Below are positions 40,449-45,448 of a stretch of 64,000 bases of DNA, in pieces. The notes below the pieces were generated by a model. The model had not been told where the DNA came from. It saw only the letters and a program-made list of their open reading frames with translations, and ran no database searches. The position numbers were made by a program, and so were the translations under genes. Each line of letters begins with the position of its first letter. Positions within the stretch are counted from its first letter, which is position 1. Origin of the DNA: Candidatus Latescibacterota bacterium (GTDB lineage Bacteria; Latescibacterota; UBA2968; GCA-2709665); assembly GCA_965248435.1 (NCBI GenBank), contig OZ252100.1:3808001-3872000 (forward strand). Reading direction: 5' to 3'.

Positions 40449-40647
40449 TTTCGAGCACCCACGGCCTTCTCATTTGTCTCCAGCGTCCGCCCCTCGCCCC
40501 GAACAAATTCCTCTGAATTGTGAGGATGGCGGGAAAACACTCGGGAACAAGATCGATCGTGAACATCGAATCGAGAAACTGTCTATTCCATGACGCAGCT
40601 TTGGAGCCAGCTTTCTTACTAGGTGATTAGACGAGGAGCTTCCAGGA

Positions 40648-41682
40648 ATGACCGAGACGATTCTGACTGACGGATACGGATACGGGGCCCTGAGGGACGA
40701 GGTGGCCCTGCTCCTCCAGGAGGGCAAGGCGCGCGCCGCTGCGGCGGTGGCGCGTGAGACGCTGCTGACCTACCACGCGATCGGCGGGGCCGTGAGCGAA
40801 TACCTGCTCGCGCACCCGGCCGCATACGGCGAGCAGACCGTGGCGCGGCTCGCGGCCGACGTTGGGCTCAGCAACTCGATCCTGTATGAGGCCGTGGCTT
40901 TTTATCGATTTCGCCCAATTTTCCACGCGCGTGGAAAATTGGGTTGGACCCACTACCGGGCCCTGCTGAAGCTGCCCACGGACGCCCAGCGGGAGGCGGC
41001 TGAGGCCGCCGCCCAGGAGCATCGCTGGAGCGTTCGAGACCTGGAGGCGCAGATCCGGTCCGGCGCGTTTGAAGGATCCGGGTTGGCCGCGACCGAGGTC
41101 AAGGCTGCTCACCAGCTGCCGGCCCTGCGCGGACAGTTCTACACCTACAAGCTGGTCGAGGCGCCTCAATTCCAGGAACGCAGTCTCCGGCTGGACCTGG
41201 GATTCGGGACTCAGCTCGCGTGGCCGATTCCGGATGCGGAGAGGTTCCGCGGAGGGCAGTTCCTGAACGCGACCCGCCAGGGGCCAGAGAAATACCGCTT
41301 CGCCGAAGCCGTCGAGCGAACCGCCGCATTCTATACCTACGTGGCGCGCGTTCTGCGCGTCATCGACGGAGATACGGTCTGGCTGGACATCGACTGCGGT
41401 TTCCGCGTGTGGGCGCGGCAGAAGGTGAGGCTGCGGGGGATCGACACGCCCGAGATCAAGACGGCGGAGGGCGTGCGTGCCAGGGACTTCGTCGCGGAGG
41501 CGCTGGAGAGCGTCCCGTTCGTCGTCGTGACGACGACGAAGCCGGACAAATACGATCGGTACCTGGCCGACCTGTTCTACCTGCCTGAGGCAGAAAAGGC
41601 GGAAGAAGCGCTGGCGAAGGGACGGTTTCTGAATCGCGAGCTCGTGGAACAGGGATTGGCGGAGCGGGTCAGAAAGGGATGA
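40648..41682 (+). CDS. DUF1016(YhcG)-N-like domain fused to thermonuclease (SNase) domain
   Basis: N-terminal YHAIG..YGEQTVARLA..LGWTHY..WSVRDL; C-terminal RVIDGDT, VRLRGIDTPE, DKYDRYLA. Confidence 0.75.
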   Translation: MTETILTDGYGYGALRDEVALLLQEGKARAAAAVARETLLTYHAIGGAVSEYLLAHPAAYGEQTVARLAADVGLSNSILYEAVAFYRFRPIFHARGKLGWTHYRALLKLPTDAQREAAEAAAQEHRWSVRDLEAQIRSGAFEGSGLAATEVKAAHQLPALRGQFYTYKLVEAPQFQERSLRLDLGFGTQLAWPIPDAERFRGGQFLNATRQGPEKYRFAEAVERTAAFYTYVARVLRVIDGDTVWLDIDCGFRVWARQKVRLRGIDTPEIKTAEGVRARDFVAEALESVPFVVVTTTKPDKYDRYLADLFYLPEAEKAEEALAKGRFLNRELVEQGLAERVRKG

Positions 41683-41758
41683 AAGCACGGTCCTTTAGAC
41701 GACCTGATGGAAATTAGGTTCTATGGTTCAGAATATTAGGTGTATCTATAGAAAGGCA

Positions 41759-41787
41759 TTCACGTAATAGGGCGCATTATCTATATT
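41759..41787 (+). promoter_or_regulatory. Candidate sigma70 promoter (Pc-like) upstream of the cassette array
   Basis: TTCACG-17 nt-TATATT in an AT-rich stretch 75 bp before the first GTT site. Confidence 0.4.
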
Positions 41788-41975
41788 ATTGGCAGGATTT
41801 ACGCAGTGCATTTTATCTGCCCTACAGGTGGAATCTGCGCACATGGTGCGCGAATGCAGAAGTTGAACTAAACCGCTTCGCGGTGGCCTGCTGCAAGGCC
41901 TTTGCTCTTTGACAACCAGGATATGATACCGTGCAAGTCCGGAGCCACTTTGCAAATGGCTCTGTGCTTCGCATC

Positions 41976-42013
41976 CTCCTTCTGCTAACAACGTCCACCA
42001 TCAGCAGAAGGAG
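41976..42013 (+). promoter_or_regulatory. RBS-sequestering hairpin upstream of the recombinase
   Basis: ctccttctgct (41976-86) is a perfect 11-bp complement of agcagaaggag (42003-13), which holds the SD. Confidence 0.55.
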
Positions 42014-42019
42014 AGAGCC

Positions 42020-42871
42020 ATGACCAAGCATCGGAAGCGAATGATCCGGGACATGCAGTTGAAAGGTTTAGATCCGGATACGCAGAAGGCGTACGTGAGC
42101 GGAGTGGCCGGGCTGTGTCGTTACTGCAAGACACCGCCCGACCGGCTCAGCGAAGAAGAGATCCGCGCCTATCTGCACTATCTGATCACTGAGCGGAAGC
42201 TGTCCCAAAGCTATGTCAACCAGGTATACAGCGGGCTGAAGTTTCTGTTCCAAACGACGTTGAAGCGTGACTGGGTCGAGTGGGGCATCCCTCGTGCGAA
42301 GAAGGCAAAGAAGCTCCCGGTGGTACTCTCCACAGAGGAAGTGCAGCGGCTGATCGACAGGACCAACAACCTGAAACACCGTACGCTGCTGATGGTCATT
42401 TACTCTGGCGGGCTCAGACTGAGTGAGGCCATCGGGCTAAAGCTTTCCGATATCGACAGTGACCGGATGCTGATCCGTGTGCGGGGCAAAGGCCAAAAAG
42501 AGCGAGAGACGCTTCTGGCCCAGGAGGCCTTAAAGGCACTCCGCGTCTATTGGCGCACCAACCCGTCTCGCGATTGGCTGTTCCCCGGCGAAAGACCGGA
42601 CGCGCCGCTCCATGCTCGCACTGTCCAGAAAGTCTTCGAGCAGGCCTGCCGACGCGCGGAGATACAAAAGCGTGCGAGTGTCCACTCGCTGCGTCACAGC
42701 TTCGCCACGCATCTTCTGGACAACGGAGTCGACATCCGCTTCGTCCAACAACTGTTGGGTCACACGAGCATTCGAACCACCACCGTCTACCTCCACGTCA
42801 CCACCCGGGACCTCACGCGTATCAGAAGCCCCCTGGACCTTTTGGGAGATGAAGACAAGCCGACTTCGTAG
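42020..42871 (+). CDS. Tyrosine recombinase (SAM-like N-terminal + catalytic domain), no IntI-specific insertion
   Basis: GLRLSE (R), GKGQKER (K), HSLRHSFATH, LLGH, TTVY. Confidence 0.92.
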   Translation: MTKHRKRMIRDMQLKGLDPDTQKAYVSGVAGLCRYCKTPPDRLSEEEIRAYLHYLITERKLSQSYVNQVYSGLKFLFQTTLKRDWVEWGIPRAKKAKKLPVVLSTEEVQRLIDRTNNLKHRTLLMVIYSGGLRLSEAIGLKLSDIDSDRMLIRVRGKGQKERETLLAQEALKALRVYWRTNPSRDWLFPGERPDAPLHARTVQKVFEQACRRAEIQKRASVHSLRHSFATHLLDNGVDIRFVQQLLGHTSIRTTTVYLHVTTRDLTRIRSPLDLLGDEDKPTS

Positions 42872-42883
42872 CGGAGGTCGGCC

Positions 42884-44068
42884 ATGTCACAGGCTCTCGA
42901 AGTCGCCGACATCTTCCGGGCCCACGGAGACAGCTATCAAGTAGAATACGGTGATCACATGCCGCTTCGGCAGAAGCGGGCCATGCGGGCTATCCAGATC
43001 TGCCGAACAGCTGCGCTGGGCGGACACGTGGAAGTGTGCGGACACTGCGGAGCGAAGCGGATCGCCTACAACTCCTGCCGCAACCGGCACTGTACGAAGT
43101 GCCAGTTCCTGACGACCGAACGATGGATCGACGCTCGTAAAGAGGATCTCCTTCCGATCCCATACTTCCACGTCGTCTTCACGTTGCCCGAGCCCCTGCG
43201 GCCGCTTGCTCTGCGGAACCAGAAGCTGATCTACAACCTGGTGTTTAAAGCCGCATCGCAGAGTCTTCTGGAGCTGGCGCGGGAACGGAAGTATCTTGGA
43301 GCGCAGATCGGCTTTACCGCCGTGCTTCATACATGGTCTCAGACACTCATCGACCACCCGCATCTGCACTGTATCGTAACTGGAGGTGGGCTGACCCACG
43401 ACGGTCAGGAATGGAAGGCGGCGCGACGGGGCTTCTTTCTACCCGTAAAAGTTCTGTCCCGACTGTTCCGGGGGAAGTTCCTTGCGTTCCTGAAGGACGC
43501 GCACCAGGAAGGCCTTCTGGCGTTCCCGGGATTGAGTGCTCCACTGGAAGATGCGTTCTTCGATCTGCTTCGGGGTCTTTACCAGAGAGAATGGACCGTT
43601 TACGTCAAGCCGACTTTTGCGGATCCAGAACGCATCGTGGCCTATCTGGGACGATACACACACCGGATCGCCATCTCCAACCACCGGCTGGTCGCCTGTG
43701 AGGGCGACCGGGTCTCATTCCACTACCGGGACCGCCAGGCCGGCAACCGACGGAAGCTGATGACCGTCGATGCCTACGAGTTCATCCGGCGGTTCCTGCT
43801 TCACATCCTGCCGGATGGCTTCGTGAAGATCCGGCACTACGGACTGCTCAGCAATCGGGGTCGCCGGAAAAAGCTCGCACGATGCCGTAGGCTCCTGGGC
43901 ACTGTATGCACGACGGCTTCCGCAGCCACAAAGGCGACCTGGCAGGACCTTCTGCTCCGGGTAACAGGCATCGATCTTCAGGTCTGTGCGCAGTGCGGAG
44001 GCCCTATGCTCACAGTCGGAACCCTCGCGCCTCTGCGAGCGCCTCCGGCACATGTTGCCGTAGCTTGA
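42884..44068 (+). CDS. IS91-family (HUH, Y2) transposase with Zn-binding N-terminal domain
   Basis: CRT..CGHC..YNSCRNRHCTKC, HPHLH, YLGRY, FVKIRHYGLL. Confidence 0.92.
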   Translation: MSQALEVADIFRAHGDSYQVEYGDHMPLRQKRAMRAIQICRTAALGGHVEVCGHCGAKRIAYNSCRNRHCTKCQFLTTERWIDARKEDLLPIPYFHVVFTLPEPLRPLALRNQKLIYNLVFKAASQSLLELARERKYLGAQIGFTAVLHTWSQTLIDHPHLHCIVTGGGLTHDGQEWKAARRGFFLPVKVLSRLFRGKFLAFLKDAHQEGLLAFPGLSAPLEDAFFDLLRGLYQREWTVYVKPTFADPERIVAYLGRYTHRIAISNHRLVACEGDRVSFHYRDRQAGNRRKLMTVDAYEFIRRFLLHILPDGFVKIRHYGLLSNRGRRKKLARCRRLLGTVCTTASAATKATWQDLLLRVTGIDLQVCAQCGGPMLTVGTLAPLRAPPAHVAVA

Positions 44069-44273
44069 GCTCCTACACCATCCCTTGCCCGCAAGCCCAA
44101 CCACCCAACACGGCAGTAGTCTGTCCACTCTTTGAGCTTGGTAGAGCGACTATGGGATCCTGCGACATCGGCCCCTCCAAACAGCTTCAAATACGGTCCG
44201 ATGACTGGGCCAGCCCAGCGGTCCTTACACAAGAATCACTCATCCAATCCCCATAGGCAGGTGAAGCGGCTTC

Positions 44274-44348
44274 GTTCAACACCGTGTATCCGGAATCCCG
44301 CTCCCGTCCACGCTTCTCCGACTCCGGATACACGCTTAATCGTTAACT
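44274..44348 (+). repeat. attC-like site 0
   Basis: GTTCAAC..gtgtatccgga / tccggatacac..GTTAACT. Confidence 0.7.
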
Positions 44349-44383
44349 GCAATCGTGGCCTGGGTGTCAAAGCAAGGAGAACC

Positions 44384-45448
44384 ATGTTGTCTGTAGCTGT
44401 TGTGGCCCTGGTATCTGTCCTGCTTTTGTCAGATTCTTCTTTCGGAAGAGATGTGAACCTTGACCTGACTCAAGCAGTAGCCGAAAATGACAGCGCCGCC
44501 TTGAGAGTCGCTCTAGATTTAGTTGCAGATGTGAATGCTAAGGACCAGAAAGGCATGACAGCTCTAATGGATGCGGCGATGAACCCCAATCCACACATTA
44601 CACAAATGTTGTTGGATTCAGGAGCAGCTGCAAATGCAATAGATTCGGAAGGCAGGACAGCTTTAATGTATGCGGCAGTGAAAGGAAATATCACAACCGT
44701 TCAAACCCTGTTGGACGCGGGTGCCCATATGAACACTCAAAACCGCGGGGGTAGGACAGTTTTGATGCTAGCTTCAGCAGCGGGTTACGAATCAATCGTA
44801 CAGGTGTTACTGGATGCGGGGGCTAGGGTGAATGCAGAAGACGGGAATGGTTACACGGCATTGAGGTGGGCGGAAAAGAATGCTCACATTGGCATTGCGC
44901 GGACGTTGCGGCTTGAGCGGGTACGGTTTAGGCCAGACATTGATATTCCCCTAATACGGGCATCATTTGCCGGAGACATATCCACTGTCCAAGCCTTGGT
45001 TGAGAAGGGCGTTGATGTGAACTTGAGGGACGAAGGTGGCAATACAGCTCTGAAATGCTCAGCTCGAAAGGGACATACAGACATTGTAGAAGTACTGTTG
45101 GATAGAGGTTCAGACGTGGATGCACAAAGTAAGAATGGCCATACAGCCCTGATGGTGGCAGCTCGTAAGGGCCATACGACTATTTTAGAAGTGCTCCTAG
45201 AAAAGGGCGCAGATGTGAACGCCACGGATATATATAGGGTTACGGCTTTGATGGGCGCGGCAGTCAAGTGTCATCGGACTGTCGTGCAAGCGCTTCTGGA
45301 TAATAATGCGGATGTCAATTTGAAAGACAGTAAGGGTAGAACAGCCTTGGAGTTAGCCAAGATGGCCTTAGGATCTGCCGTCGATTCAAACAAGGAACGC
45401 TATTCTGACCTTATTCTGTTGCTCCAGAATGCAGGAGCCGAGGAATAG
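44384..45448 (+). CDS. Ankyrin-repeat protein with signal peptide (cassette 1)
   Basis: Repeated G.TALM.AA..G...V..LLD.GA.VN; hydrophobic N-terminus. Confidence 0.92.
   Translation: MLSVAVVALVSVLLLSDSSFGRDVNLDLTQAVAENDSAALRVALDLVADVNAKDQKGMTALMDAAMNPNPHITQMLLDSGAAANAIDSEGRTALMYAAVKGNITTVQTLLDAGAHMNTQNRGGRTVLMLASAAGYESIVQVLLDAGARVNAEDGNGYTALRWAEKNAHIGIARTLRLERVRFRPDIDIPLIRASFAGDISTVQALVEKGVDVNLRDEGGNTALKCSARKGHTDIVEVLLDRGSDVDAQSKNGHTALMVAARKGHTTILEVLLEKGADVNATDIYRVTALMGAAVKCHRTVVQALLDNNADVNLKDSKGRTALELAKMALGSAVDSNKERYSDLILLLQNAGAEE

Follow-up and report, generated by a model that had tools for sequence, protein, structure and literature searches.

Bacteria capture genes chiefly by means of integrons, about which two questions are still open, namely the source of the single-stranded attC substrates and the origin of the integrase (IntI) together with its attC sites. 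The core of such sites follows the consensus RYYYAAC (the inverse core, R″) and GTTRRRY (the core, R′), with an imperfect inner stem between the two. Some elements exploit them as places to insert, as IS1111-attC insertion sequences and group IIC-attC introns do, which interrupt attC by DDE-type or retro-homing chemistry. In this work we describe an element of another kind, found in a stretch of 64,000 nucleotides of the genome of a Candidatus Latescibacterota bacterium (contig OZ252100.1; hereafter the window, i.e., positions 3,808,001-3,872,000 of a 5.67-Mb genome in two contigs, 56.6% G+C and 97.5% complete). It is a module of two genes, one for a tyrosine recombinase and one for an IS91-family transposase, and it is a cassette-form, integron-homing member of a known, little-studied element family.

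The closest described systems are IS91 elements with a tyrosine recombinase gene upstream of the transposase gene (‘site-specific integrase’ and ‘IS91 family transposase’ in PGAP annotation). According to Smyshlyaev et al. (bioRxiv 10.1101/542381), IntI has its closest homologues in the recombinases of IS91 elements, which are without the IntI insertion. IS1111-attC sequences and group IIC-attC introns are mentioned as attC-associated in PMC9229058, which also has a sentence on an IS91-like element, ISShvi3, that lies adjacent to an attC in a Shewanella integron and yields ‘a new gene cassette structure’. Beyond that sentence, an attC-like structure of the ends of such elements is undescribed in the literature searched, which does not include ISfinder and TnPedia, and the accessible parts of PMC5737581, PMC3469429, PMC7923331, PMC9345347 and PMC11322121 contain nothing on the ends of recombinase-bearing IS91 elements.

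Compared with the other members of this family, the module has the same pair of genes in the same order, shares with them its ends, an oriIS-like motif and a hairpin, and has a recombinase that falls inside the IS91-linked group. It differs from the relatives found in that its proteins are only 47-61% identical to theirs, and in its setting, with six copies, each at an integron attI and four with detectable adjoining cassettes, in a genome without IntI. The six copies are 96-100% identical and delimit the module as a discrete unit, since all measure exactly 2,484 nt from GTTGAAC (41862 in the window) to the GTTA on the right, without a single insertion or deletion (by the integron convention, TT...G, the window's copy is 41863-44342, 2,480 bp). 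On the left, the similarity begins at ...A|GTTGAAC, with identical ends in all copies; on the right, the copies are identical through ...CTTAATCGTTA| and diverge after it, the six sequences that follow being all different and all opening like the start arm of a cassette. Neither end of the module is found alone anywhere in the genome, i.e., there are no one-ended or partial products. Logan contigs of four public runs, compared with 41500-44700, break at 41861 and 44345, with no go-back joint listed, and contigs cannot show rare forms. Altogether 57 sites vary among the copies: the recombinase gene has 29 of them and the transposase gene 23, with 21 and 13, respectively, falling on codon position 3 (34 of the 52 coding sites), whilst two more are in the short intergenic gap and only three in the 435 nt of non-coding ends; a leader of 158 nt is conserved. 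This distribution of the variable sites speaks of constraint on both genes, which are under purifying selection, and of a constraint that is stronger still on the ends.

All six copies have upstream of them a semi-conserved, attI-like region of about 150 nt that ends in ...GCGAATGCAGAA-GTT, and all are placed between its GTT and a GTTA, the exact base of exchange within the GTT being unreadable from the sequence. An nhmmer profile of seven upstream regions finds seven full-length copies of this region in the genome (E from 1e-38 to 2e-23) and four partial ones. The seventh full copy (locus L007, C1:4954224-4954607) is empty; it reads ...GCAGAAGTTAAC..., and its ...GCGAATGCAGAAGTTAAC runs straight into a cassette with no module in between. 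The module and the attI-like region have only 7-9-nt chance words in common. On its other side, the module of the window is followed by a cassette array with attC-like junctions (...TAAC, inner stem, variable loop, GTTA...), and a profile of these resident sites gives 76 hits in 13 clusters genome-wide. By this profile or by arm pairing, at least one attC-like cassette is found within 9 kb 3′ of five of the six modules, and in four of the six the detected cassette begins at the module's own right-hand GTT; neither the attC profile nor arm pairing detects a cassette downstream of the sixth. The original prediction for this locus had taken the module to be built as a cassette itself, which agrees well with six copies having identical ends, GTT on both sides and attI-like sites to sit in, one of which is seen empty. 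It had gone on to suppose that the module might excise as a circle, replicate by rolling circle and seed new arrays at GTT sites. Excision is not seen in the assembled contigs, nor is such seeding, as the six copies here and the three in a related genome (see below) are all at pre-existing attI or attC and none is at an ordinary GTT.

Near-identical copies on paralogous attI-like regions could, in principle, have been spread by homologous recombination or gene conversion between the platforms, which would count against an integration of each copy by a recombinase. The upstream ~90 nt are indeed near-identical between loci L001 and L004, and the variable sites of the copies cluster at 42529-43052, as they would in mosaics. 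At the other loci, however, similarity is lost only a few bases from the GTT, to the left as to the right, and no two downstream cassettes are alike, whilst the homology that such an exchange needs on the right side is limited to GTTA. We therefore hold this way of spreading to be very unlikely.

It is in the structure of its ends that the module most resembles a cassette. The left arm GTTGAACTAAACCGCTTC (41862-41879) is complementary to the right arm GAAGCGGCTTCGTTCAAC (44263-44280) at 16 of 18 positions (89%), the mismatches being at positions 8 and 11, and the right arm with up to three mismatches occurs only at these two places in the 64 kb, where 0.05 would be expected and none of 100 shuffles gave two. 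The right arm is followed by a hairpin with arms complementary at 14 of 15 positions (11 perfect pairs among them), which as single-stranded DNA folds on the bottom strand at -14.6 kcal/mol (z = -3.3; one of 200 shuffles was equally good), and then by CTTAATC and GTTAAC, the latter at 44342-44347. Inverted repeat, hairpin and GTTAAC had all been noticed at the outset, and their coordinates and pairing stand as first given. The boxes GTTCAAC and GTTGAAC fit RYYYAAC and GTTRRRY, respectively. When the ends are joined in silico, the predicted junction of a circular module (...CTTAATCG|TTGAAC...) adopts a fold in which an outer stem of 10 bp and a mismatch are succeeded by a box of 7 bp, a bulge of 5 nt and a long stem, the same layout as in three resident cassettes examined, and its bottom strand is more stable than the top one (-30.1 against -24.0 kcal/mol), as it is in all three of these. 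Such fold geometry suggests that the ends of the module are the halves of one attC-like recombination site.

The resemblance to the resident cassettes goes down to a single mismatch. In these, the first 18 nt or so form a start arm that pairs with what precedes the cassette's own ...TAAC, and at arm position 11 an A of the start arm stands opposite a C of the end arm in 12 of 12; the module makes it 13 of 13, just as had been claimed from the sequence, and on the bottom strand this A/C pair becomes a G-T wobble. To our knowledge, extended R stems of this sort are absent among classical attC sites. Like integron cassettes, the module is bounded by G|TT, has R″ and R′ boxes that fit and an imperfect stem with a bulge and a variable loop, folds better on its bottom strand, and is placed at attI (and in one related genome also at attC). 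Unlike them, it is 2.5 kb long and carries two mobility-enzyme genes where a cassette usually carries one promoterless cargo gene, its R stem is extended to 18 bp, and end signals of the IS91 type are added to it. The sequence of its L hairpin also differs from that of the resident attCs, the attC profile having no hit at 44274-44342. One could imagine the hairpin to be a landing pad that pre-existed the module, a possibility that was considered and rejected, the hairpin being present in this genome only within the six full copies, never solo, and absent from the empty attI.

The transposase, on the other hand, is clearly that of an IS91 element. It scores 449.9 bits against NF033538 (cut-off 125), matches PF14319 and PF04986, and has H158, H160 and H162 (HxHxH) and Y254 and Y258 (YxxxY) invariant in an alignment of 11 proteins. 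With IS91, IS801 and IS1294 the module shares this Y2 HUH transposase and its zinc-binding N-terminus, a left tetranucleotide with a subterminal palindrome, and a motif of the AAT-YCC-YAT type downstream of the transposase gene, and its extra upstream ORF has a parallel in the orf121 of IS91 (PMC13181058). The transposase itself is only about 26-32% identical to those of the E. coli copies. By the same source, the terIS of IS91 has its tetranucleotide beside a subterminal palindrome, its oriIS abuts the target, and the two ends differ from each other, without terminal inverted repeats. In agreement with this, a true IS91 in an E. coli plasmid (five copies) has the left end (T)CGAG-TAG-GCAGCC..GGCTGC and the right end ...TTTAAATTCCTATCGAT (...CCTATCGAT|; ...AAATTCCTATCGAT), followed three times by GAAC, once by CAAG and once by a tandem copy; an IS1294-like copy terminates in ...AATTTCCTATACGT before CAAG.

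The left end of the module, GAAC-TAA-ACCGC TTC GCGGT, has the layout of a terIS, a likeness of layout only. Its motif caatccccatag (44245-44256), compared as AATCCCCATAGG with each of the IS91 and IS1294-like ends, is equal at 8 of 12 letters (ungapped, by eye and with no significance computed). In the original prediction this motif was likened to an oriIS, and it is indeed strongly conserved in the family and resembles the end of a true IS91; it is not terminal, however, but lies 17 nt before the GTTC of the inner inverted repeat and 85 nt inside the end of the unit, and no canonical or conserved tetranucleotide comes after it. Something similar applies to the GTTC of the R″ box (44274-44277), which had been proposed as an IS91 target tetramer: it is present, as the mirror image of the left-end GAAC, but in the orientation of the transposase it points opposite to the flank of a true oriIS. 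Because the right arm mirrors the left end, the module has two terIS-like sites on opposite strands, and the mobile unit runs 64 nt past the right one. Unlike IS91, IS801 and IS1294, its ends are inverted repeats (18 nt in the module, at least 13 nt in 36 metagenome loci), its oriIS-like motif is internal, it extends past both IS91-type signals to the hairpin and GTT, and its target is attI or attC and not any GTTC or CTTG, the tetranucleotides that an oriIS abuts on the transferred strand.

Even so, these likenesses invite a simpler account, in which the Y2 transposase alone moves the module by single-strand rolling-circle transposition into GTT(A/G) at the feet of hairpins, places that only happen to be integron sites, with the recombinase merely accessory (e.g., for resolution or regulation). 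The transposase is intact and under purifying selection, the oriIS-like motif is conserved, the left end has the tetranucleotide, TAA and palindrome of a true IS91 (PMC13181058), and insertion 5′ of a tetranucleotide without target duplication would give exactly the junctions observed; moreover, unrelated hairpins in Mesorhizobium have related copies at their 3′ foot. The account has difficulty with the 64 nt by which the unit exceeds the terIS-like inner repeat and the 85 nt by which it exceeds the motif, and with terIS-like sites lying on opposite strands, whereas a HUH enzyme needs its origin and terminus on one. The flanks GTTA and GTTG are also absent from the 12 IS91 tetranucleotides given in Table 2 of PMC13181058 (accessible part), one-ended or partial products are lacking from the genome, and attI or attC is where nine of nine copies are found, in spite of the frequency of GTTA in any genome. 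Transposition by the transposase alone is thus unlikely in our opinion.

The recombinase is similar to IntI in all but its middle part. Its best solved structure is VchIntIA (PDB 2a3v, E 2e-35), matched in two stretches (chain 19-176 and 245-318), and against the about 68 residues of VchIntIA between 176 and 245 it has 26. To TIGR02249 it likewise aligns in two stretches, with 195.5 bits (cut-off 265) and profile positions 177-236 skipped, and to NF040815 it scores 219 (cut-off 220). Since the matches to both TIGR02249 and 2a3v skip the middle, we take it to be an IntI-like recombinase without the IntI-specific insertion in the catalytic domain. It shares with VchIntIA the N-terminal SAM-like domain and catalytic-domain motifs such as HxLRHSFATH and LGH, and differs from IntI by the missing 176-245 stretch, by falling below the TIGR02249 cut-off and by standing apart in a tree. 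Being insertion-less and encoded directly upstream of an IS91 transposase, it has the features of the ‘integron-like’ IS91-linked subgroup of bioRxiv 10.1101/542381. In a quick tree of 42 recombinases (one truncated row dropped), 33 of 33 IS91-linked ones are on one side of a branch with an SH-aLRT of 98, which fits a long joint history with the transposase, and the resident recombinases of arrays, the single canonical IntI and Xer proteins are outside this group. The nearest relatives in named genomes are from Pirellulales (phylum Planctomycetota). The genome of the window holds no canonical IntI, as none of its 23 matches to TIGR02249 exceeds the cut-off and the six module genes are the best of them, and no further intact recombinase in it is more than 32% identical to the module's. 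The 283-aa protein was also considered as the resident integrase of the array, and this was rejected, the resident type (in G001, G003, G018 and the remnant at L007) being outside the IS91-linked group.

How the attI-like region relates to proper integrons becomes clearer from the 30 related genomes that were searched, together with the window's own, for the integron-integrase family. Among these 31, a canonical IntI (464 bits) is found in one only, here called G004. Its gene is co-oriented with the cassettes, and ~190 nt after it comes a module related to the window's (identity 55% for the recombinase and 61% for the transposase), whose left junction is ...AGTT|GAACAAAACCGC... and whose right junction is ...CAATCTTTACC|GTTATCT. 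A second copy comes after a truncated IntI gene, and a third lies, judged by eye, inside an attC with the R″ GCCTAAC and an R′ split into ...cttG before the module and TTAGGC after it. All three are therefore at integron sites (two after IntI, one in attC), and the last, at the G|TT of a canonical-looking attC, also supports the idea of a module placed as cassettes are. A search for an intact paralogue of the interrupted attC returned the query only. The copy after the truncated IntI gene (L214, G004:C1:2157000-2169000) has ~1.6 kb extra between the transposase gene and the oriIS-like motif.

In two genomes of the window's bacterial family (G003, locus L218, and G018, locus L217), arrays are headed by an insertion-less IntI-like recombinase without a transposase, co-oriented with the cassettes and with the AGTT of an attI ~128 nt later (in G003, after a 283-aa frame). 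IntegronFinder-type rules would probably score arrays with such a recombinase as integrase-free. The resident recombinase of G003 is followed by cassettes that have the same 18-nt arms and the same position-11 mismatch, and that of G018 only by attC-profile hits, farther downstream. Among the relatives, the attC profile matches in G001, G003 and G018 only, and the attI profile has no match in the other genomes, plasmids or metagenome loci examined. In the window's genome, the empty site at L007 has upstream of it, in the same orientation, the last 82 codons of a recombinase gene, 60% identical to the resident recombinase of G001 and 50% to the IntI of G004. These contexts in G004, G003 and G018, taken with the remnant at L007, show the attI-like region to be a genuine attachment site of integrons whose own integrase has decayed here.

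Gene pair and end structure alike are features of the element family at large. Among 79 genome loci found by the recombinase the transposase is also present in six, an annotated integrase is directly upstream in six of seven plasmid loci fetched by the transposase, and the recombinase is directly upstream in 70 of 80 metagenome loci, nine of the other ten having less than 300 nt upstream. The same end architecture is found in Planctomycetota, Eremiobacterota, Acidobacteriota, Proteobacteria and Clostridium. The left end GAACTAAACCGC... is nearly identical in Pirellulales relatives with proteins only 48% identical, GAAC-TAA-ACCGC..GCGGT is the family consensus in 36 metagenome loci, and the palindrome is kept even with altered letters, as in GCCGCT-AA-AGCGGC (L023) and CCGCTCCGCG..CGCGGAGCGG (Mesorhizobium); the left end of L026 is diverged or truncated and uninformative. 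The motif (as AATCCCCATAG) is present within two mismatches in 65 of the 80 metagenome loci, and also in relatives from Eremiobacterota, Acidobacteriota, Proteobacteria and Clostridium. The ends of 92 loci were scanned, namely those of the window, of 11 relatives found earlier and of the 80 metagenome loci, and 67 have the motif followed by an inner repeat ...GCGG(C/T)TT(A/C)-GT(T/C)C. Of these 67, 57 offer 120 nt or more beyond the repeat, and in 52 a hairpin follows (arms of at least 10 nt, starting within 12 nt), whereas 1340 random positions gave 131 such hairpins. The sequence of the hairpin differs between lineages, and [GAC]TTA stands 4-11 nt after it in 17 of the 52 loci, against 194 of 4600 control windows. 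Across phyla, then, the homologues carry a hairpin and ends of the GTTGAAC/GTTCAAC type, which was the check proposed in the original prediction. In Mesorhizobium, plasmid copies of 89-92% identity define a unit (A)TTGGAC...CTCTGCA with unrelated hairpins as left flanks. These copies (L100, L105 and L111 on NZ_AP023258.1) are located at the 3′ foot of the hairpins, and in two cases on this plasmid ~9 nt of the left-flank hairpin's 5′ arm recur in the right flank.

This conservation bears on another interpretation, by which the module is passive cargo, an element that inserted into a cassette in the past and has since depended for its movement on the integrases of host integrons alone, its own genes being idle. 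In its favor, a canonical IntI gene is directly upstream of the G004 module, resident recombinases head similar arrays in G003 and G018, and the arms of the module carry the position-11 A/C mismatch of the resident cassettes. Yet hairpin, boxes and spacer are kept in members from distant phyla outside integron arrays, and for this reason they belong to the element; in addition, six copies 96-100% identical exist in a genome without an intact host integrase, and both module genes are under purifying selection. We regard the module as mere cargo as improbable.

On balance, we think that the module probably enters integron sites by recombinase-mediated, cassette-like integration. This is favored by nine of nine copies (six here, three in G004) being at attI or attC, by a unit boundary that is at the foot of an attC-like hairpin and not at an IS91-type signal, by the lack of partial products in the genome, and by a junction that folds like the resident sites. 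The module would then be an IS91-type element with an upstream tyrosine recombinase, here in ‘cassette form’. In a circular module, GTTGAAC and the 11 nt after it would pair with 11 nt and GTTCAAC, with the hairpin and the 7-nt spacer beside the right half, and the joined ends would form a folded site of the same geometry as the sites of the resident cassettes. It would enter the platforms through an exchange of the tyrosine-recombinase type, at the G|TT of attI and elsewhere at that of attC, and the catalyst in this genome would most probably be the module's own IntI-like recombinase, the sole intact gene of its kind. The Y2 transposase, together with a left end like terIS and the oriIS-like motif inside the module, would probably supply or copy the single-stranded circular form, an idea encouraged by the report that only the bottom-strand circle of IS91 integrates (PMC13181058). 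This division of labor between the two enzymes, and the circles themselves, we infer from sequence.

Several points weigh against such integration. IS91-type insertion of GTTGAAC...CTTAATC 5′ of GTTA gives equal junctions, and because both routes predict the same ones the sequence alone does not tell which enzyme made them. The data, which are assembled contigs and blind to rare forms, show neither a circle junction nor a polymorphism of empty sites nor an intermediate specific to one strand. The recombinase is without the IntI insertion, the part of IntI that holds the extrahelical bases of attC. The triplet that flanks the Pirellulales copies is GAA (cGAA) and not GTT, and two of three right junctions in Mesorhizobium are TAAT or CTAT; as the flanking triplet differs in relatives, the point of exchange is not uniform across the family. 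To these may be added the spread by homologous recombination among the six attI sites, weighed above.

The module is like IS1111-attC sequences and group IIC-attC introns in using integron recombination sites as landing pads, and unlike them in that it goes in where the integron itself crosses over and supplies a look-alike site and an IntI-like enzyme. In the element family, IntI's nearest relatives are joined to a single-strand transposase of the HUH type and to a look-alike attC, and the family homes to integron sites. It is hard not to speculate further, that elements with a recombinase and an IS91 transposase are built on the integron's own chemistry. The HUH transposase may peel off or copy a single-stranded circle whose joined ends fold like an attC, and the insertion-less IntI-like recombinase may integrate this folded site at attI or attC. 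The six modules, as the only working source of integrase, may keep the orphan arrays (at least 76 attC sites) active, and the element family may be a living relative of the ancestor of the IntI/attC system. Taken with all of its parts, this proposal is rather unlikely to be right. If a recombinase without the insertion does act on folded sites, the accepted role of the IntI insertion would need revision, and arrays scored as ‘lacking an integrase’ could be served by a mobile one. With its six near-identical copies, its one empty site and its lack of IntI, this genome is a natural test bed for these ideas. The features of the module and of its platform in the window are collected in Table 1.

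Table 1. Position of the module's features and of its platform in the window.
Feature	Position	Strand	Remarks and basis
attI-like platform region (insertion target, not part of the mobile unit)	41712..41861	+	nhmmer profile; ends ...GCGAATGCAGAA before GTT
Left arm: GTT crossover triplet and R′-like box GTTGAAC, leading into conserved GAAC-TAA-palindrome	41862..41879	+	inverted repeat with 44263-44280
Subterminal palindrome ACCGC-TTC-GCGGT beside GAAC	41872..41884	+	computed folds; layout of IS91 terIS
Tyrosine recombinase gene, 283 aa	42020..42871	+	PF13495, PF00589
IS91-family Y2 (HUH) transposase gene, 394 aa	42884..44068	+	NF033538, PF14319, PF04986
oriIS-like motif CAATCCCCATAGG	44245..44257	+	177 nt after transposase stop codon; conserved in family
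Right arm: left end inverted, closing in R″-like box GTTCAAC	44263..44280	+	inverted repeat; GTTCAAC at 44274-44280
Hairpin in the position of attC L-box and variable loop	44283..44334	+	arms 44283-44297 and 44320-44334
7-nt spacer CTTAATC, then GTT that starts the next cassette (right boundary)	44335..44344	+	copy comparison

Some further observations concern the platforms and their surroundings. The two best-conserved blocks of the attI-like region carry a promoter-like TTCACG-17-TATATT (41759-41787) that points into the cassettes and may correspond to the Pc promoter of integrons; in a promoter and terminator scan, the counts of sites, this type included, were not above those in shuffles. 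Upstream of the attI-like region of the window, where the integrase would be expected, is a gene with DUF1016_N and SNase domains (40648-41682), the stretch of which is spanned by a 353-aa antisense open frame (40627-41688), and a paralogue of this gene is upstream of the copy at L002. Downstream, the array between 44342 and 64000 has at least 19 attC-like sites, its first cassette after the module (44384-45448) coding for an ankyrin-repeat protein with a likely signal peptide. At L005 (C1:2058787-2088802), the attI-like region and its module are inside an array of 21 sites, and the region starts precisely with the GTT (GTTGTCA) of the attC before it, as though an attI x attC exchange had joined two platforms. 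Finally, the stretch C1:4624078-4625490 holds a 362-aa tyrosine recombinase and, after it, part of an attI-like region, from which the last 40 nt with the GTT are missing.

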